Shown piece by piece: positions 49,226 to 60,101 of a stretch of DNA of 64,000 bases. Both the position numbers and the translations under genes were made by a program. Origin of the DNA: Chthoniobacterales bacterium (GTDB taxonomy: Bacteria > Verrucomicrobiota > Verrucomicrobiia > Chthoniobacterales > UBA10450); the NCBI GenBank assembly GCA_035635435.1, contig DASQBB010000013.1, positions 1,286 to 65,285 of the forward strand, given 5' to 3'. A model generated the notes under the pieces. The model did no database searches and had not been told where the DNA came from. It worked only from the letters and a program-made list of their open reading frames with translations. Within the stretch, counting starts at the first letter, position 1; each line of letters opens with the position of its first letter.

Positions 49226-51268
<2,043 letters not shown>

Positions 51269-51271
51269 CAA

Positions 51272-52027
51272 ATGAAAAACGGAAAGCTTCAGGGAAAAGT
51301 TGCAGTCGTAACTGGCGCCTCGAAAGGGATCGGCGCGGGAATCGCTAAAGAGTTGGCCGCCGAAGGCGCTGCCGTGGTGGTTAACTACGCATCGTCAAAA
51401 ACGGATGCGGACAAAGTCGTCGACGAAATCGCGAAACGCGGCGGCAAAGCCGTCGCCGTGCAGGGAAGCGTCGCGAGCAAGTCGGAAGTTCAGCAGCTTT
51501 TTGCCGCAGCAGAAAAAGCCTTCGGCAAGATCGACATCCTGGTCAACAACGCCGGGGTTTACGAATTCGTGCCGTTGGACAGTGTCACCGAGGAGCAGTT
51601 CCACAAACATTTTAATACGAACGTTCTGGGAATAATCCTCGTCACTCAAGAGGCGCTGAAACATTTCAATTCCGAGGGCGGAAGCATCGTCAACATCGGT
51701 TCGCTCGCCAGCTCTCTCACTCCACCGACTGCGGTGGTTTACAATGCGACCAAAGGCGCGGTCGATGCGATCACCCGGACGCTGGCGAAGGAACTCGGAC
51801 CGCGAAAGATCCGCGTAAATTCGATTAACCCCGGCGTGGTGAAGACCGAGGGGTCGATCGCTGGCGGTTTCATGGAGGGCGATTTCGTGAGGACGCTCGA
51901 AGCGCAAACGCCGCTCGGTCGCGTCGGTGAACCCGACGACATCGCGCCAGCCGCGGTGTTCTTCGCGTCGGACGATTCGAGATGGATCACTGGCGAGACG
52001 CTACTAATCGCGGGGGGACTTCGTTAG
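51272..52027 (+). CDS. SDR family oxidoreductase
   Basis: TGASKGIGAGIA and NNAG, plus the Y-x3-K catalytic motif (YNATKGAV). Confidence 0.9.
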   Translation: MKNGKLQGKVAVVTGASKGIGAGIAKELAAEGAAVVVNYASSKTDADKVVDEIAKRGGKAVAVQGSVASKSEVQQLFAAAEKAFGKIDILVNNAGVYEFVPLDSVTEEQFHKHFNTNVLGIILVTQEALKHFNSEGGSIVNIGSLASSLTPPTAVVYNATKGAVDAITRTLAKELGPRKIRVNSINPGVVKTEGSIAGGFMEGDFVRTLEAQTPLGRVGEPDDIAPAAVFFASDDSRWITGETLLIAGGLR

Positions 52028-52036
52028 AAACAATTT

Positions 52037-52070
52037 GCCGGTGGCTGTCGCAACATCGACAGTCGCCGGC
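52037..52070. promoter_or_regulatory. Imperfect 14-6-14 inverted repeat between the SDR gene and groES
   Basis: gccggtggctgtcg-caacat-cgacagtcgccggc (2 mismatches). There is no T-run, so it could be a weak terminator or an operator. Confidence 0.3.
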
Positions 52071-52110
52071 TCAACCAAAAAACAAAAACCAAGAAGGAGT
52101 TAATTAACTT

Positions 52111-52407
52111 ATGGCAGGAGTGAACGTAAAACCGCTCGGAGACCGGGTGCTGGTGCAGCCGATTGAAGAGCAGGAAACAAAAAAAGGCGGGATCATTATT
52201 CCCGACACTGCGAAAGAAAAACCGCAGGAAGGCAAAGTGGTCGCTCTCGGCACCGGCAAGGTGAACGAAGAGGGCAAGAAGGTGGATTTCACCGTGAAGA
52301 AAGGGGACAAGGTTCTCATTTCGAAATACGGCGGCACCGAAATCAAAATCGATGGCGAAACTTTCCTGATCATGCGCGAGGACGACATCCTCGGCATCAT
52401 CGGCTGA
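52111..52407 (+). CDS. groES: Co-chaperonin GroES
   Basis: [42 protein letters not shown]. Confidence 0.97.
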
Positions 52408-52444
52408 TGCGCCAAATAACATTTAACCAATAACTAGGAACTAA

Positions 52445-54082
<1,638 letters not shown>

Positions 54083-54110
54083 TCCGAAACCGAAACAACA
54101 ATTAACAAAC

Positions 54111-54145
54111 AGCCGAGCTCGCAAGGGCTCGGCTGTTTTGCTTTT
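54111..54145 (+). terminator. Rho-independent terminator of groESL
   Basis: agccgagc-tcgcaagg-gctcggct followed by gttttgctttt. Confidence 0.7.
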
Positions 54146-54211: not shown

Positions 54212-54997
54212 TTAAATTGCTTCGTGAATCCATAGGAGTGAAAGGCTGCGGTTAAGTGTCGGGAAGTAAATCGCGTCTTCGGTAATGCAGGATTTATCGT
54301 CGCCTCGGAAGCCTTCTAGCCAATGGCCCGCTTCGATATCTGAGCAGCGAGAACATCGCTTGGTTTCGTTCACCTCGGCCGCGCAACTGTGCCCGTGAAT
54401 ATAATCATCCTCAAGGAGGGAGAACGAAAAGCCAGCCGACGGAATGAACCACAAACGGCGCCTATTTTGGGCCGAAATCAGCACGCATTCCTCCGTTGTC
54501 GTTAGAACGAATTGCACCGCTGTTGCCGTAAGGGCCGTCTGAAAGTCTTCGGCCACGCGTTTGATCAGCTCGAAGGAAGGCTCCTGATTGGCGGTGCGCG
54601 CTTTGATAAATTCCCGCGGCATCAGCAGTTCGGCTGCAAAAAGATTGGCTTCGTACTCTTCGGTTTCCTGCCGTTCTGACCAGTTATTTGTCTGCTTGTC
54701 GTCCACCGTTTCAATCTGTCGTGTATCTGGATGCAAAAAGAAGTGGCCGAGTTCATGGCCGATAACGAACCGCTTTTGTCCCTCGTATCTAAGCGAGCGC
54801 CGAACTGTGATCACTGCTGAGACGCCCCTCCGAACAAGACAACCGTCCATTCCTTGTAGCGAAGCGTAGCGGACCTCAGCATTCTTAAACATAGCGATTC
54901 GTTCGATGTCGATCTCGCTCGGATCTTTGATCTGCAATTCGGCGAGCAGGCCGTCTGCTTTGGCGAGGACAATGGCTTTACGTTGGCTGGACGCCAT
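54212..54997 (-). CDS. ImmA/IrrE-family zinc metallopeptidase with a ~110-aa C-terminal extension
   Basis: FVIGHELGHFFLHP (HExxH) and EEYEANLFAAELLMP. The C-terminal part contains HGHSCAAEVNETKRCSRCSDIEAGHW. Confidence 0.75.
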   Translation of the reverse strand: MASSQRKAIVLAKADGLLAELQIKDPSEIDIERIAMFKNAEVRYASLQGMDGCLVRRGVSAVITVRRSLRYEGQKRFVIGHELGHFFLHPDTRQIETVDDKQTNNWSERQETEEYEANLFAAELLMPREFIKARTANQEPSFELIKRVAEDFQTALTATAVQFVLTTTEECVLISAQNRRRLWFIPSAGFSFSLLEDDYIHGHSCAAEVNETKRCSRCSDIEAGHWLEGFRGDDKSCITEDAIYFPTLNRSLSLLWIHEAI

Positions 54998-55426
54998 TTA
55001 AGTGCTGTCAGTGCCCTTTCCCTGAGTTCGTTTTTGTAAACGTTCATCGGCTTCGAGGATGGCTGCCATATCCTGCAAGGAAAGAGTCCCCTTGTTTTTG
55101 AACGCAAGAGCCCTCTCAGGACCGCCGGCCTTCAAGAACCTGGCGAACGCTATAAGTACGTGTTCTGGTTTTTGATCGGACCATTGCGCTCCGGGCGTCT
55201 CCGCTATACGAAGGGATTCTTTTTTTTCATCAGCAACTCGCATCCATGCGAGGCGCTCATGCTTGTCATGGGCCGCTATAATTGCATCCATCTTCTGCAG
55301 GAGCGCATCGATATCGATCCCGCGATCTTGTAGCTCGATTCTCAACTGATCGGACGAGAGGGCATCCGACTGTTGATCCAATCCGTTCAATAGATTCTCC
55401 ATTGGACCTGGCTCATCATTCGTCAT
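54998..55426 (-). CDS. Hypothetical acidic 142-aa protein
   Basis: I recognise no motif. Its stop abuts the ImmA start and its start lies 1 nt after the sigma-like stop. Confidence 0.5.
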   Translation of the reverse strand: MTNDEPGPMENLLNGLDQQSDALSSDQLRIELQDRGIDIDALLQKMDAIIAAHDKHERLAWMRVADEKKESLRIAETPGAQWSDQKPEHVLIAFARFLKAGGPERALAFKNKGTLSLQDMAAILEADERLQKRTQGKGTDST

Positions 55427-55427
55427 T

Positions 55428-56081
55428 TTAGTTTCCTTCCTGTAATCGCCGCTGCAATTCTTCGAAGTTAGTGACTCCGAAAAATTTTCGGGCGTATTTC
55501 GTCAATTTCCTCCGAAGTTCATCCACCTGAGCACCGGAGATTCCCATTAATTCACTTATCTCTGATCGTTTGAAGCCGACACTCAATGCTTCGATGTATT
55601 TTTGCATTTCGTCGTCGCCGTCAAACGAGGCTATCAGCGCCCCAATGCACCGCCGCTGATCTTCACGAAGCTCGTCACCGCGCAATTTCTCATCAGGCGT
55701 GAGGGCTATCGCTACGGCAGTCGAAATTGGATCGGACGGATTTCCCTCCTCATCAGTTTCCTTAGTATAATCGACGATGCCACTGCGGTCGGAGCGCTTC
55801 TTTTCTGCAGATATTAAGCTATCAGTGACGGAATTGAGGTTATCGAGAAGCGGTCTGCTCGGGTCAAAAGCGCGCCGACCGTTAATCAGTCGCAAGACTG
55901 CTTCCGAGACGAAATCCTTTGCCGTCTTATCGCCGACCATTACCTCACCCTGTGCGGAGTATCTCGGACGGTAGCCGCGCCAGATATATCTCCGGATCGT
56001 TGTGTCAGCGTGGATCGCGGCACGGGCGACCGTGTCGCGATAGCCCGGCTCGGCTAACGCAGCTTTTAGGGCAGGGTTCAT
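55428..56081 (-). CDS. Sigma70-family (ECF-like) factor candidate
   Basis: Region-2-like AKDFVSEAVLRLINGRRAFDP. Region-4-like HTH YIEALSVGFKRSEISELMGISGAQVDELRRKLTKYARK. I chose the ATG at 56081, because the longer tracked ORF (to 56234) would overlap the Ubl gene head-to-head. Confidence 0.5.
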   Translation of the reverse strand: MNPALKAALAEPGYRDTVARAAIHADTTIRRYIWRGYRPRYSAQGEVMVGDKTAKDFVSEAVLRLINGRRAFDPSRPLLDNLNSVTDSLISAEKKRSDRSGIVDYTKETDEEGNPSDPISTAVAIALTPDEKLRGDELREDQRRCIGALIASFDGDDEMQKYIEALSVGFKRSEISELMGISGAQVDELRRKLTKYARKFFGVTNFEELQRRLQEGN

Positions 56082-56210
56082 TTGGGGGGACCATTGGGTT
56101 CTCTCAGTAAACGCTCCGGATGAAAAGTTTTTTGGAAGATTTTTCCAGAAATCTCTGATTTCGGAGCGGAAGAAGGTGAGCGCGGACAACCCCGCCTCCT
56201 TTAACCTACT

Positions 56211-56489
56211 ATGAATACAACCCCGGAAACACAACAGCAGAAGACGCCGACTTCGCCAAACGCGAAGAAACCGGACATCGTGGAAATCTCAATCAACAGC
56301 AAGAAGTTCTCGACTGAACGTGGTAAGAACTCCGTGCAACATTTGCGGGAGCTTGGAAGCGTGCCGGCTAGCGAGATCTTGAGCGAGCTTAAGAACGGAA
56401 AATTCCATGACCTTCAGAACGACGGTCACGTCGAGATCAAGGGCGGCGAGGTGTTCGTTAGCCATCCTCCAAGCGGCGGTTCCTCCTAG
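56211..56489 (+). CDS. Ubiquitin-like (single beta-grasp, multiubiquitin-type) protein ending GG-SS
   Basis: IVEISINSKKFSTERGKNSVQHLRELGSVPASEILSELKNGKFHDLQNDGHVEIKGGEVFVSHPPSGGSS. It is the first gene of an operon with E2, JAB and E1. Confidence 0.6.
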   Translation: MNTTPETQQQKTPTSPNAKKPDIVEISINSKKFSTERGKNSVQHLRELGSVPASEILSELKNGKFHDLQNDGHVEIKGGEVFVSHPPSGGSS

Positions 56490-56842
56490 TGAGCTTCCCT
56501 CCAGACGAAATCGCAGAGATGAAAGCGGCCTTCGCTGGTTTATCGACAGCCAGCGAGGGCGGAACTGAGTTCATTCTAATATCTTCGCTCAAATTACCCG
56601 ACGGGTGCGATCCTGCCGTTGTAGATGCACTGCTGTGTCCATCGACGCGTGATGGATATCCGTCGCGGCTTTATTTATCCGCTCGAGTCAGTCATCAAGG
56701 CCCAGGCCAAAATTGGAGCGCCGATCAGGTTATTCTTGGCCGACGATGGTTTGCAGTGTCGTGGCGAACGCAAGAGTCTGCGGGTCGCCTCCTGGCGATT
56801 CTTGCGGGGCATCTTGAAGCGTTTACATGCAAACGAAGCTAA
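56489..56842 (+). CDS. Mini E2/UBC-like protein (prokaryotic E2 family E-like)
   Basis: LKLPDGCDPAVVDALLCPSTRDGYPSRLYL...RRWFAVSWRT. The GTG start shares one nucleotide with the Ubl stop. The family call is from memory and operon context. Confidence 0.5.
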   Translation: MSFPPDEIAEMKAAFAGLSTASEGGTEFILISSLKLPDGCDPAVVDALLCPSTRDGYPSRLYLSARVSHQGPGQNWSADQVILGRRWFAVSWRTQESAGRLLAILAGHLEAFTCKRS

Positions 56843-58182
56843 AGATTCCAAGGTTACTAGTCGAAGCAGCGCTTGCAGACCTATATCGGCCGCACCCAGT
56901 CGCAGCTGAACGCGTCGGGTTCTTCTCTACAAAAGTCACTCGCGCTAAGAGCATCGTAATCGTCCATTGCATCGCATATCATCCGGTGTCAGACGCGGAC
57001 TACATTCGCGATAATTCGGTTGGAGCTCGGATCGGGTCGGGAGCTATTACAGAGGCGATGGCGCGCTGCGCCGCCGATGTTGGGCAGCTTCATGTTCATG
57101 CGCACGGCGGCCGAGGTACGCCCGTACCGAGCATCACGGATAGCAGCGAAACACCTTCGGTAGCACGGAGCTTGTGGAATGTTAACCGAAAGCATGCGTG
57201 CGGCTGGGGAATTCTCAGCGACGACGGCGGCTGGGCGTCCGTCCTTATTTCACCTGAGCGAGACGATGCTGTGGAAGGCCAGGTTGCGCTGATTGGGTAC
57301 CCGATCACAGTCGCCCGGGCGCGACGCATAGCGGTTCAAGCGCCGCTGTGGTGGCGAAAACTATTTCGCCGAAAGTGCGCAATAGGGAATAGGTACGATC
57401 GACAGAGCTTTCTTGGCCCAGATTCAGACAAAATCTTTGCGAACTTGCGCGTCGGGATCGTTGGTCTCGGCGGCGGCGGATCTCACATCGCGCAACAATT
57501 GGCGCATCTCGGTGTGTGCCACTTCGTGCTTTGCGATCCTGACACGATTTCGGAATCAAATCTCAACCGCACGGTGGCAGCGACAGAGTCCGACGTCGAC
57601 CACCACACCTGCAAAACGACAATCGCGAAGCGACAAATTCGCGGATTACATCCGGATGCCGATATTGTTGTTATTGGAAAATGGCAAAGCCGCAGTGAGC
57701 CCCTGCTTCATTGTGACGTTGTCCTAGGATGCGTTGATACTTTCGCTGGCAGACGGGATTTGGAATCCTTTTGCCGCCGCCATCTAATTCCCTATGTCGA
57801 TGTTGGCATGGACGTGCTTAAAGAATCAGGTCGCGGCCATGAAATCATCGGCCAAGTAATTCTCTCAATGCCCGGCCGACCGTGCATGCATTGCATGGGT
57901 TTTCTAACGGAAGAGCTGCTCGCCGAGGAGGCTCGCAGATACGGTGCTGCGGGAGGACGACCACAGGTTGTCTTTGCTAACGGAGTAATCTGCTCAGCGG
58001 GGGTGGGCGTCGTTGTCGATCTTGTAACAAGTTGGTCGGGTAATCGGCGTCAGTCGGTGTATCTAAACTTCCGCGGCAGTGACCTGTCATTGCGTGATGA
58101 TCCGCGACTCCGGCATTTGGCCGACACATGCGAGCATTATCCATTGATCCAAGCGGGCGATCCTACCTGGACCCCGTTGTAA
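56827..58182 (+). CDS. JAB/MPN+ metalloprotease fused to a ThiF/E1-like adenylyltransferase
   Basis: JAB: Glu28 (AAERVGFF) and HVH-x10-SITD. E1: RVGIVGLGGGGSHIAQQL, LCDPDTISESNLNRT and PCMHCMG. Confidence 0.8.
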   Translation: MQTKLKIPRLLVEAALADLYRPHPVAAERVGFFSTKVTRAKSIVIVHCIAYHPVSDADYIRDNSVGARIGSGAITEAMARCAADVGQLHVHAHGGRGTPVPSITDSSETPSVARSLWNVNRKHACGWGILSDDGGWASVLISPERDDAVEGQVALIGYPITVARARRIAVQAPLWWRKLFRRKCAIGNRYDRQSFLGPDSDKIFANLRVGIVGLGGGGSHIAQQLAHLGVCHFVLCDPDTISESNLNRTVAATESDVDHHTCKTTIAKRQIRGLHPDADIVVIGKWQSRSEPLLHCDVVLGCVDTFAGRRDLESFCRRHLIPYVDVGMDVLKESGRGHEIIGQVILSMPGRPCMHCMGFLTEELLAEEARRYGAAGGRPQVVFANGVICSAGVGVVVDLVTSWSGNRRQSVYLNFRGSDLSLRDDPRLRHLADTCEHYPLIQAGDPTWTPL

Positions 58183-58183
58183 G

Positions 58184-58645
58184 ATGATGAACGGGCAGGA
58201 TCCAAAATTGCGCGAAATATGGTTTCAGAAAGACATTCCAGTTGTTTATCGTCCTGGCGGATCAGATCAGTTACTCGTGCGTTTGCCGTATGCTTCGGAC
58301 AATCGCGTTTGGCTTAAAGGGCACCACCGGATTAAGCCAAAATGGAATCCGGAACACAAACGATGGGAGATCGCGAAGGCTTGGTTCGAGGATGTGGTGA
58401 AACGTGCGATGGCGAAGTACGGATCCGTTTACGTTATTGAACCTTTTCGCGTGCAAAAGAAATGCGCACCGGCCTGTTGGAACGCGAAGGGACTCGAGTG
58501 CGACTGCTCATGTATGGGCGAGTATCACGGAACGGGCGACCCAGGCGGTCGATGGTACGTTATTGCCGATTCACTCGCCGTGAATTGGGGGCCACGTCGG
58601 TACTCTTATAAACTGCTGAAACCTACGGCACCGGCTTCACTCTGA
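58184..58645 (+). CDS. Hypothetical Cys/His-cluster protein, fourth gene of the Ubl operon
   Basis: LLVRLPYASDNRVWLKG...KWNPEHKRWEI, then CAPACWNAKGLECDCSCMGEYHG. The start lies 1 nt after the E1 stop. Confidence 0.5.
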   Translation: MMNGQDPKLREIWFQKDIPVVYRPGGSDQLLVRLPYASDNRVWLKGHHRIKPKWNPEHKRWEIAKAWFEDVVKRAMAKYGSVYVIEPFRVQKKCAPACWNAKGLECDCSCMGEYHGTGDPGGRWYVIADSLAVNWGPRRYSYKLLKPTAPASL

Positions 58646-58739: not shown

Positions 58740-60101
58740 GTGGAAAATTACGTTTCGAATTTGATGGCCGAGGTGAAGGCCAAGAACCCGGGCGAAACCG
58801 AGTTTCACCAGGCGGTGCAGGAGGTGGTCGAGTCGCTTACGCTGGTTTTGGATCGAGACTCGCGCTATCGCAAAGCGAAAGTCCTCGAGCGCATTATTGA
58901 GCCGGAACGTGTGATCATGTTCCGCGTGCCGTGGCAAGACGACAAAGGCGAGATCCACGTCAATCGTGGTTTCCGGGTGCAAATGAACAGCGCGATCGGA
59001 CCTTACAAAGGCGGGCTGCGATTTCATTCCACCGTCAATCTCGGCATCCTGAAATTTCTGGCTTTCGAACAAGTTTTTAAAAATGCGCTGACCACACTTC
59101 CAATGGGCGGCGGCAAGGGCGGCTCCGATTTCGATCCGCATGGAAAAAGCGATGCCGAGGTGACGCGTTTTTGTCAGGCGTTCATGTGCGAACTTTTCCG
59201 CCACATCGGCCCCGACACGGACGTTCCGGCGGGCGACATCGGCGTCGGCGCCCGCGAGATCGGGTTTTTGTTCGGAATGTATAAGCGGCTCAAAAACGAA
59301 TTCACCGGCGTGATGACGGGCAAAGGATTGACCTGGGGCGGATCAGTCATTCGTCCGGAGGCGACCGGTTACGGTGCGGTTTATTTCGCGGAAGAGATGC
59401 TCAAAACGCGCAAGGAAGATCTCAAGGGCAAGACCGCGCTCGTTTCGGGAAGCGGGAACGTCGCGCAATACACGGTCGAGAAATTGATCACGTTAGGCGC
59501 GAAGCCGGTCACGATGTCGGATTCCACCGGCTACATTTTTGATGAGGAAGGAGTCACGCGCGAGAAATTGGCGTTCGTGATGGACCTGAAAAATGTCCGG
59601 CGCGGGCGCATCTCCGAATACGCCGACAAATTCAAAGGCGCAGTGTTCACGCCGACGAACCCGAAGCTCGATCACAATCCGCTGTGGAATCACAAGGCGG
59701 AGTGCGCGTTCCCGAGCGCGACCCAGAACGAGATCAACGGCAAGGACGCAGCCAATCTGTTGAAGAACGGCGTTTACGTTGTTTCCGAAGGCGCGAACAT
59801 GCCGACGACAATCGACGGCATCAATCAGTTCTTGGACGCGAAGATTTTGTTCGGACCCGGTAAAGCGGCGAATGCCGGCGGCGTCGCGACTTCCGGATTG
59901 GAGATGGCGCAGAACAGTATGCGGATCAGGTGGACGCGTGAAGAAGTTGACGCGCGCCTGTTCAACATCATGAAAACGATCCACGAAGTTTGCGCGCGCA
60001 CCGCCGAGAAGTACGGGACGCCGGGAAATTACGTGAACGGCGCGAACATCGCCGGCTTTGTTAAAGTGGCCGACGCGATGCTGGACCAGGGACTCGTCTA
60101 A
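58740..60101 (+). CDS. gdhA: Glutamate dehydrogenase
   Basis: NPGETEFHQAVQEV and LPMGGGKGGSDFDPHGKS, plus GSGNVAQY. Confidence 0.95.
   Translation: MENYVSNLMAEVKAKNPGETEFHQAVQEVVESLTLVLDRDSRYRKAKVLERIIEPERVIMFRVPWQDDKGEIHVNRGFRVQMNSAIGPYKGGLRFHSTVNLGILKFLAFEQVFKNALTTLPMGGGKGGSDFDPHGKSDAEVTRFCQAFMCELFRHIGPDTDVPAGDIGVGAREIGFLFGMYKRLKNEFTGVMTGKGLTWGGSVIRPEATGYGAVYFAEEMLKTRKEDLKGKTALVSGSGNVAQYTVEKLITLGAKPVTMSDSTGYIFDEEGVTREKLAFVMDLKNVRRGRISEYADKFKGAVFTPTNPKLDHNPLWNHKAECAFPSATQNEINGKDAANLLKNGVYVVSEGANMPTTIDGINQFLDAKILFGPGKAANAGGVATSGLEMAQNSMRIRWTREEVDARLFNIMKTIHEVCARTAEKYGTPGNYVNGANIAGFVKVADAMLDQGLV

Follow-up and report, generated by a model that had tools for sequence, protein, structure and literature searches.

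The window analyzed here, a 64,000-nucleotide (nt) stretch of contig DASQBB010000013.1 from a Chthoniobacterales bacterium, contains three tightly packed minus-strand genes that face an operon for a ubiquitin-like (Ubl) protein across a short spacer. In the order of transcription, this trio encodes a sigma-like protein of 217 amino acids (aa), counted from its ATG (55428 to 56081), a 142-aa protein, hereafter the middle protein (54998 to 55426), and a 261-aa protease of the CapP type as the last gene (54212 to 54997). A preliminary description had placed the genes 0 to 1 nt apart, and all three open reading frames (ORFs) were recovered, with 1 nt between the sigma-like and middle genes and 0 nt between the middle and capP genes. 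The region-2-like and region-4-like helix-turn-helix (HTH) peptides that it quoted, and the HELGH motif, were present in the translations, and the spacer between the ATG of the sigma-like gene and that of the Ubl gene (56211) spans 129 bp (56082 to 56210), as described.

Word-seeded searches returned 147 clusters of sigma-like proteins and, with an alignment as the query, 168 clusters of middle proteins, nearly all of them metagenome proteins, and an exhaustive profile search for the middle protein gave 117 representatives, mostly of 130 to 155 aa, with full-length matches. We compared 59 related loci from soil Verrucomicrobiota, four of them from Chthoniobacterales/Verrucomicrobiae metagenome-assembled genomes. 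Wherever the contig was long enough, the order of sigma-like gene, middle gene (about 140 aa), and capP was invariant across these loci. At L059 (1102 to 3053), the sigma-like and middle genes were split over several frames and accompanied by an inverted partial copy, which points either to a cassette that is decaying or rearranged or to an assembly of poor quality.

The proteins encoded by the trio

As judged by homology, the protease is a full-length CapP of the CapP/ImmA/IrrE (M78) group. Its residues 13 to 257 matched positions 8 to 241 of the 242 in the PADLOC capP profile (E = 4.9e-54), Pfam Peptidase_M78 matched with an E value of 3.6e-16, and the sole PDB sequence match was Thauera CapP (7t5t; E = 7.6e-14); Pfam, PADLOC, and PDB thus agree with the earlier assignment to the ImmA/IrrE-type HExxH metallopeptidases. 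Because the capP profile covers the protein end to end, the C-terminal extension of about 110 aa that had been ascribed to it is the normal CapP C-terminal region, described for CapP proteins as HTH-like/GAF. The HELGH motif (residues 81 to 85) and the Glu block EEYEAN were invariant in 30 orthologues; E82 is the predicted catalytic Glu, and E114, which aligns with E129 of Thauera CapP, is the probable third zinc ligand. A zinc ribbon in the C terminus (C215/C218) was considered and rejected, as both cysteines were unconserved and only H201 and C205 were kept. The CapP proteins of trios were shorter (254 to 267 aa) than those of Thauera and Indioceanicola (289 to 294 aa), and V98 of the window protein sits where Thauera CapP has the cysteine-switch residue C113, a cysteine that occurs in only about 33% of CapPs and is hence not obligatory (bioRxiv 10.1101/2022.04.27.489752). 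In the same work, CapP was activated by single-stranded DNA (ssDNA) and cleaved the upstream-encoded XRE repressor CapH between F82 and R83, which induced the divergent operon after DNA damage, and CapH plus CapP was described as inducing antiphage signaling systems based on cyclic oligonucleotides (CBASS), Bub, and other defense operons (bioRxiv 10.1101/2022.04.27.489752).

The first gene of the trio encodes what modeling and alignment suggest is a remote, divergent member of the sigma-70 family, similar to extracytoplasmic function (ECF) sigma factors, with a sigma2 plus sigma4 fold. Residues 51 to 197 aligned to positions 24 to 161 of the 165 in TIGR02937 (E = 8.8e-6), and among 21 members of its family, 8 reached an E value of ≤0.01 on TIGR02937 and 5 an E value of ≤0.1 on Sigma70_r2. 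A search of PDB sequences with the family profile retrieved no sigma factor, and for this reason we used a fold search for the assignment. The AlphaFold2 (AF2) model had a predicted local distance difference test (pLDDT) score of 78.6, and almost all of its top 50 Foldseek matches in the PDB were sigma factors, including Bacillus subtilis SigH, Mycobacterium tuberculosis SigH, SigL, and SigK, Escherichia coli sigmaE and sigmaS, SigW, and CnrH; PhyR was also among them. When the family was compared with E. coli RpoE in hhalign, region 4 was aligned, weakly (E = 0.032), and the sigma2-like domain of the family contained 37 invariant columns. Several results count against the assignment. The protein missed the curated cutoffs (25.4 versus 42.9 bits for TIGR02937 and 16.6 versus 24 bits for Sigma70_r2), a Pfam search for sigma region 4 gave no match, the profile search of the PDB was empty with respect to sigma factors, and the Foldseek scores were weak (best E, 2.7e-4; template modeling [TM] scores, 0.25 to 0.4); low TM scores would be expected of a model with two mobile domains. 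Of the sigma70/ECF-like assignment made previously, therefore, the TIGR02937 alignment and the fold carry a remote membership, and membership by the curated Pfam and NCBIfam cutoffs does not stand.

The same shortfall on all sigma hidden Markov models is what a different reading would predict, namely, that the protein is a sigma-fold repressor that replaces CapH, binds the spacer as a dimer or tetramer through its sigma4 HTH, and is inactivated once CapP has been triggered, with the middle protein as an adaptor or corepressor. Sigma-like folds are reused elsewhere, PhyR being an example, and the known CapP/ImmA/IrrE systems all act by derepression. However, a complete sigma2-like domain with so many invariant columns would serve no purpose in a mere HTH repressor.

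The middle protein had no match in Pfam, PADLOC, NCBIfam, or PDB sequence searches, and no HTH was found in it or in 19 relatives with Pfam, PADLOC, and NCBIfam. Identity with CapH was ruled out (hhalign against Thauera CapH, E = 0.59; no XRE or HTH), in keeping with the earlier remark that the usual XRE repressor is missing from the trio. The AF2 model was all-helical, with six helices and a pLDDT of 68. The N-terminal 45 aa are strongly acidic (pI 4.05), and at residues ~20 to 45 there is a weak SAP/HeH-like motif (LS..ELK.EL..RGID), with SAP matches in 6 of 19 family members (best E, 0.03); two long proteins, P0310 (820 aa) and P0329 (1,076 aa), match this segment 5 to 9 times, marking it as a repeat-prone module. 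The residues A108-F109-(K/R)110 were invariant in the family and precede the last predicted helix, and AFRN was the best-kept motif among distant relatives; the likeness of this motif to the F82-R83 cleavage site of CapH is one of resemblance alone. The gene lies directly upstream of capP and is co-oriented with it, which is the capH position, and this arrangement was invariant in the related loci; it also lies directly downstream of the sigma-like gene, with which it is strictly co-inherited. In two different subfamilies the sigma-like and middle genes were fused in frame (L005 9052 to 10074, which is P0250, and P0263), and these fusions hint, in the manner of a Rosetta stone, that the two proteins may be physical partners.

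We favor the view that the middle protein is an anti-sigma factor and a CapP substrate. It could instead be a diverged, non-HTH equivalent of CapH that binds the inverted repeat in the spacer and represses both promoters until CapP cleavage derepresses them, the sigma-like protein being unsequestered and contributing promoter specificity only. Lau et al. 2022 imply such a reading, and their layout recurs in a Bradyrhizobium plasmid trio; a gene exactly at the capH position whose product carries an AF-R-like motif would fit it. The weak SAP/HeH matches might then represent a DNA-binding part, but the SAP-like motif lies in the strongly acidic N terminus, no HTH or other DNA-binding domain was detected, and the hhalign comparison with Thauera CapH also speaks against it.

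Twin half-sites in the divergent spacer

A small inverted repeat, TGGAA-N5-TTCCA, had been pointed out in the spacer, and it was found at 56133 to 56147, where it consists of two abutting −35-like elements. On its own, it is a 5+5 repeat at chance level, and it turned out to be merely the core of a conserved 57-bp element, an imperfect inverted repeat centered on it with arms of 26 nt each (56112 to 56137 and 56143 to 56168; 73% complementary). Read outward from the center, the arms have the form TTTTCCA(A/G)AAA-N11-(G/A)GAGCG(G/T), i.e., CCA-N16-GAGCG, with a −35/−10-like geometry. The minus-strand arm, TTCCAAAAAACTTTTCATCCGGAGCG (56112 to 56137), is directed toward the trio, combines TTTTCCA, a 16-nt spacer, and GAGCG(T), and ends 30 nt before the ATG of the sigma-like gene, and the plus-strand arm, TTCCAGAAATCTCTGATTTCGGAGCG (56143 to 56168), is directed toward the cargo operon, with 42 nt between its end and the Ubl ATG.

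The inverted repeat was kept at the same position in 39 of 41 nonredundant related spacers, whatever the cargo. GGAGCG was invariant in all 40 cargo-side half-sites (40/40). At 38 of 39 loci the cargo-side half-site had an internal spacing of 16 nt, as did the trio-side half-site at 31 of 39; across the center of the repeat, the distance differed between loci (7 to 11 nt). Fixed spacing within the half-sites together with a variable center fits two independent sites of the −35/−10 type and not one dimer operator. A scan of the spacer for sigma-70 consensus promoters found none. The loose half-site pattern occurred in the window only at the spacer, and the few extra copies at other loci were at chance level, so further genomic targets of the sigma-like protein were dismissed.

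The symmetry of the element bears on both repressor readings. A palindromic spacer is what a CapH-equivalent middle protein would be expected to bind, but a repeat with a variable center and fixed half-site spacing is unlike a dimer operator, and we consider that reading unlikely. The two-fold symmetry would equally suit a dimeric or tetrameric sigma-fold repressor; here, however, the half-sites show a hexamer-16/17-hexamer geometry at promoter distance from both starts, and the spacer contains no host-type promoter that could be repressed, which, with the retained sigma2-like domain, makes such a repressor quite improbable in our estimation.

The conservation of the spacer might alternatively have had a coding origin. 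An in-frame TTG upstream (extension, 56082 to 56234) would give a 268-aa sigma-like ORF that crosses the conserved spacer, and the conserved promoter-like element contains the start of a Joint Genome Institute gene call, P0033 (253 aa). In 21 of the 41 related loci, the 30 codons that precede the sigma ATG include an in-frame stop, and these stops and the palindromic nature of the element ruled out an N-terminal coding extension of the sigma-like protein. Because of the stops, we take the ATG at 56081 as the real start and the spacer as conserved at the level of DNA; the P0033 start looks like a misannotation.

Downstream of the cargo-side half-site, the plus-strand segment 56175 to 56199, GGTGAGCGCGGACAACCCCGCCTCC, where the cargo transcript is predicted to begin, forms hairpins in minimum-free-energy predictions. 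In most loci (e.g., L070 3883 to 3919, L069 3849 to 3889, and the L040 to L053 group), a hairpin separated the cargo-side GGAGCG box from the cargo start codon, with words that differed by subfamily or phylum (GCGG/CCGC, GCGAG/CTCGC, GTCCCCA/TGGGGAC, and GGTAACTC/GAGTTACC), and RNAalifold on a MAFFT alignment of these cargo-leader hairpins gave no consensus fold.

Cargo operons and distribution of the trio

The cargo of the window is a plus-strand operon of four genes. The first encodes the 92-aa Ubl protein (56211 to 56489), which ends in GGSS and matched a Multi_ubiq-annotated gene of L002 in phmmer (E = 2e-5). It overlaps by 1 nt a separate ORF for a 117-aa E2-like protein (56489 to 56842), which had no Pfam match and has orthologues in the same position in L007, L008, L016, and L026 to L028. 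The third gene (56827 to 58182) encodes a 451-aa E1 protein that matched Pfam ThiF (E = 1.8e-28) and the PADLOC E1-E2 models; its JAB-like N terminus is our reading of an HxH...SxxD motif that no tool matched. The last gene (58184 to 58645) encodes a basic (pI 9.5), Cys-rich protein of 153 aa with a CxxC...CDCSC...H cluster and no family match in Pfam, PADLOC, or NCBIfam, DUF6527 included; it was kept only in the nearest relative, L007, and sits where Bub operons carry the DUF6527 protease BubE. Type I Bub (6E.1) operons have a Ubl-E2 fusion, a JAB-E1 fusion, and a DUF6527 (BubE) protease (PMC11601596; PMC13373217). The window operon shares with Bub and Bil systems a Ubl, an E2-like protein, and a JAB-like/ThiF E1 protein, but with its separate Ubl and E2 genes, its 153-aa Cys-rich protein, and no detectable DUF6527, it is, by gene content, not a textbook type I Bub operon.

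Window-type Ubl/E2/JAB-E1 cargo was found at 8 loci, and C2/Prok-E2_E/ThiF cargo, or Multi_ubiq/Prok-E2_E/ThiF in L002, at 7 loci. Other ubiquitin-type cargo comprised a Bil-like operon (Ubl, an unassigned gene, Prok-JAB, and ThiF), type II Bub (Multi_ubiq, DUF6791-ThiF, and DUF6527), and an MBL-like E1-E2-JAB operon, and nucleotide-signaling cargo comprised CBASS with a DncV-like cyclase, type III CBASS (TRIP13 and cyclase), and a Pycsar cyclase; taken together, the cargo included CBASS of types I to III. A TIR-like effector, a radical-SAM/B12 enzyme, and several unknowns were additional forms of cargo. Very distant relatives of the middle protein (E values down to about 1e-3) belonged to the same trio beside DpnII-like, BilB-like, or type II Bub cargo. 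Some related trios therefore flank canonical type II Bub operons with DUF6527/BubE, and some flank BilB-like operons. The expectation that the trio and Ubl operons should co-occur in other genomes was borne out, the trio lying beside Ubl/E1 operons at about 21 related loci; the idea that it regulates Ubl operons specifically was not, as CBASS, Pycsar, Bil, Bub, MBL-like, and radical-SAM cargo was flanked as well. Because the divergent cargo varies between loci, the trio appears to be a portable regulator that is not specific to Ubl operons. Some trios are accompanied by DNA damage genes: in L041 to L043, the radical-SAM cargo is followed by a LexA-like S24 repressor (L042 2746 to 3375), and in Pontibacter, umuD/umuC lies directly downstream of capP (L071 5952 to 7672).

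A tblastn search of plasmids with the sigma-like protein gave no match, and plasmid trios were reached through a CapP search, in four cultured organisms: Azospirillum ramasamyi, Bradyrhizobium sp. 26S5, Pontibacter actiniarum, and Rhodoferax antarcticus. The Bradyrhizobium trio diverges from a CBASS of type II whose effector is a patatin, and the PGAP name for the gene that opens this trio is "sigma-70 family RNA polymerase sigma factor"; the P. actiniarum trio has type II Bub as its cargo. Thauera K11 and Indioceanicola have, instead of a trio, a canonical HTH CapH and a longer CapP. In profile comparisons, the middle family aligned with the 143-aa protein of Bradyrhizobium over 115 columns (E = 8.4e-5), and the sigma-like family aligned with the Bradyrhizobium sigma factor (E = 1.3e-5) and with a 200-aa protein of Pontibacter (E = 5.8e-5). 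On these comparisons, the trio is a portable regulatory cassette in at least three phyla.

Trios with diverged sigma-like proteins kept the architecture of the spacer and changed its words. The Bradyrhizobium spacer reads CTATGCC-N14-TTTCAGAA-N14-TTCTGAAA-N15-GGCATAG, that of L067 reads ATGCCGAG..TTTTGCCA..TGGCAAAA..CTCGGCAT, that of Azospirillum has 29-nt arms (TTAGGCGC...CGCGGACA and TGTCCGCG...GCGCCTAA), and that of Pontibacter has 28-nt arms. The spacing, the flexible center, the distances to the start codons, and a sequence that changes alongside the sigma-like protein are as would be expected for back-to-back promoters of a private sigma factor.

In the window, the trio and the Ubl operon form an island of ~4.5 kb between groESL and gdhA. 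Its flanks are housekeeping genes, with dnaK, an SDR gene, and groES/groEL (49304 to 54082) upstream and gdhA (58740 to 60101) downstream. A bidirectional terminator-like hairpin, with a 14-bp stem and then a T-run (54107 to 54138, both strands), separates the end of groEL (54082) from the 3′ end of the trio. The G+C content was 0.51 for the trio and 0.51 to 0.53 for the whole island, compared with about 0.56 in the surroundings, and no integrase, integrative and conjugative element (ICE), or tRNA gene was seen near the island within the window.

The slightly lower G+C content of the trio would be in line with an unrelated toxin-antitoxin or mobile-element immunity module of the ImmA/ImmR kind that merely happens to lie beside the Ubl operon. 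ImmA/IrrE peptidases do occur in toxin-antitoxin modules and in ICE and prophage immunity modules, the protease also matched the NCBIfam spr1629 antitoxin model (E = 1.8e-7), and the PDB title of 7t5t is "CapP toxin." However, the match that covers the whole length of the protease is that to capP, the window shows no integrase or ICE genes close to the trio, a defense-type operon is always found opposite the trio, and it is the cargo-side half-site that is best conserved (GGAGCG in 40/40 and N16 in 38/39). We regard chance adjacency of such a module as very improbable.

A proposed sigma-release switch and related systems

The reading that we prefer is a cassette of the CapH/CapP kind in which the XRE repressor CapH would be replaced by a dedicated sigma factor and its cognate cytoplasmic anti-sigma factor. 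At rest, the middle protein would sequester the sigma-like protein. Upon DNA damage or phage infection, ssDNA would activate CapP, by analogy with what was shown for E. coli CapP, and CapP would cut the anti-sigma factor, with A-F-(K/R) at residues 108 to 110 as the candidate site and cleavage after the Phe. The freed sigma factor would join the RNA polymerase core and fire the two back-to-back promoters (TTTTCCA-N16-GAGCG) in the 129-bp spacer, one for the Ubl/E2/JAB-E1 cargo and one for the trio. The trio-directed promoter would provide positive feedback, and fresh anti-sigma factor would later reset the system. We give this full chain, from ssDNA through CapP and anti-sigma cleavage to the firing of cargo and trio promoters, a probability of roughly 55%. 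What the sequences show is the gene content and order, the swapping of cargo, the sigma fold, the homology to CapP, and a motif that is conserved and has a defined geometry; from these we infer the sigma/anti-sigma binding, the cleavage, the inducing signal, and the use of the promoters. That the trio is a portable CapP-type cassette in which the sigma-like protein controls the adjacent operon through the conserved twin sites seems to us likely. Overall, the proposal made in the preliminary description, in which a protease acts on an anti-sigma factor to release a sigma factor, is the best-supported reading of the locus, and the conserved pair of bipartite promoter-like sites, placed back to back, supports it indirectly.

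Some observations on the middle protein and the spacer weaken the case for sigma release. A PDB fold search with the middle protein gave no match, and no known anti-sigma domain (ASD/ZAS, RsbW, NepR, or CnrY) was recognized in it. Anti-sigma factors are structurally heterogeneous, so this lowers the standing of the anti-sigma claim without excluding it. The AF2 monomer model of the middle protein was of moderate confidence only. The two sigma::middle fusions come from metagenome assemblies and could be produced by a 1-nt indel; because the sigma-like and middle genes are only 0 to 4 nt apart, the fusions may be assembly errors. Nested inverted repeats could equally serve as operators. Finally, the half-site pattern had 2 matches in the window against 0.77 expected, which is not significant alone, and its weight therefore comes only from conservation.

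The closest known system is CapH/CapP. As there, the protease is a full-length CapP homologue, the gene of the presumed substrate lies directly upstream of capP, the regulatory genes diverge from a defense operon that can be exchanged among CBASS, Bub, Bil, and Pycsar, and the middle protein has a hydrophobic-Arg/Lys motif that recalls F82-R83 of CapH. In contrast, the trio has no XRE/HTH CapH and an obligatory extra gene for a sigma-like protein, its CapP proteins are shorter and the window CapP has no switch cysteine, its spacer has twin bipartite sites and not a single CapH operator, and it is predicted to act by freeing a sigma factor that activates, instead of by derepression. In Lau et al. 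2022, a passing remark places 24 CBASS systems "alongside a sigma-70-family sigma factor," including type II systems of Bradyrhizobium strains with a phospholipase (bioRxiv 10.1101/2022.04.27.489752). The Bradyrhizobium plasmid locus has exactly this layout, and its gene at the capH position (L070 4591 to 5022) had no HTH match. Because this gene product also aligns to the middle family (E = 8.4e-5), the "capH" of the CBASS entries marked "Sigma-70 present" in Table S1 of Lau et al. is probably the non-HTH middle family of ~140 aa and not an XRE repressor. "CapH+CapP" was reported at 168 of 544 Bub operons (PMC11601596; PMC13373217), and some of these are probably sigma trios, Pontibacter being an example of Bub with a trio.

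A three-part cascade of soluble protease, anti-sigma factor, and ECF-like sigma factor tied to antiphage defense, the roles that we propose for the trio, is known from type III CRISPR as CalpL-CalpT-CalpS, in which a soluble SAVED-Lon protease can free the sigma factor (bioRxiv 10.1101/2024.05.08.593097). The two differ in that the Lon-SAVED protein senses cyclic tetra-adenylate (cA4) and the M78 CapP of the trio presumably senses ssDNA, the protease families being unrelated; in that the middle protein has no sequence or fold relation to any PDB chain; and in that the sigma targets of the trio can be read from the locus as putative twin promoters. An ECF sigma factor, DdvS, paired with DdvA, drives defense genes of a CBASS-CRISPR island (PMC11506125).

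The trio also resembles the wider class of ECF/anti-sigma pairs in its near-overlapping sigma and partner genes, its two-domain sigma2 plus sigma4 fold, and its promoter-like site of the same design upstream of its own operon, which suggests autoregulation. ECF sigma factors are usually held by a cotranscribed anti-sigma factor and autoregulate, and in RseA/sigmaE and RsiW/sigmaW such pairs are under regulated proteolysis. Unlike in these pairs, the partner in the trio has no transmembrane segment or recognizable anti-sigma domain, the same operon encodes the protease, which is of the cytoplasmic ImmA/IrrE type and not a site-1/site-2 membrane protease or ClpXP, and the sigma-like protein falls below the curated ECF model thresholds. 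In ImmR/ImmA of ICEBs1 and DdrO/IrrE of Deinococcus, a DNA-damage-activated M78 peptidase cleaves an adjacently encoded regulator; these substrates are XRE HTH repressors with no sigma factor, whereas the trio has a sigma-like gene. In open-access papers and bioRxiv, we found only the one-line note of Lau et al. 2022 and analogues for the sigma-containing variant, the middle protein, or the promoter. Because its parts (CapP, a sigma-like protein, and defense cargo) and the logic of proteolytic sigma release have precedents, we regard the trio as an uncharacterized variant of CapH/CapP and not as categorically new.

To our knowledge, the DNA damage switches of bacterial immune operons are CapH/CapP, CapW, and CapK/CapS, all of which derepress. 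By analogy with CapH/CapP, the trio probably switches adjacent antiphage operons on after DNA damage, and if the proposed mechanism is true, it adds a positive, sigma-based switch driven by the CapP protease, and part of the published "CapH+CapP" census needs to be reassigned. In its broadest form, we see even odds for a plug-and-play cassette that crosses phyla, in which CapP would destroy an anti-sigma factor of new fold and free a private sigma factor for its own twin promoter, so that any defense operon would become damage inducible and self-amplifying and the published "capH" genes of sigma-containing CBASS and Bub systems would be misassigned anti-sigma factors. Because its elements are predicted (the boxes TTTCCA and GGAGCG, the A-F-(K/R) site, and E82), a few constructs would suffice for a direct test of the hypothesis. 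The trio would then supply an orthogonal set of sigma factor, anti-sigma factor, and promoter, the compact promoter (about 57 bp) being readable from sequence, and it would offer a handle for inducing Ubl operons of the Bub and Bil-like kinds, whose biology is poorly understood.

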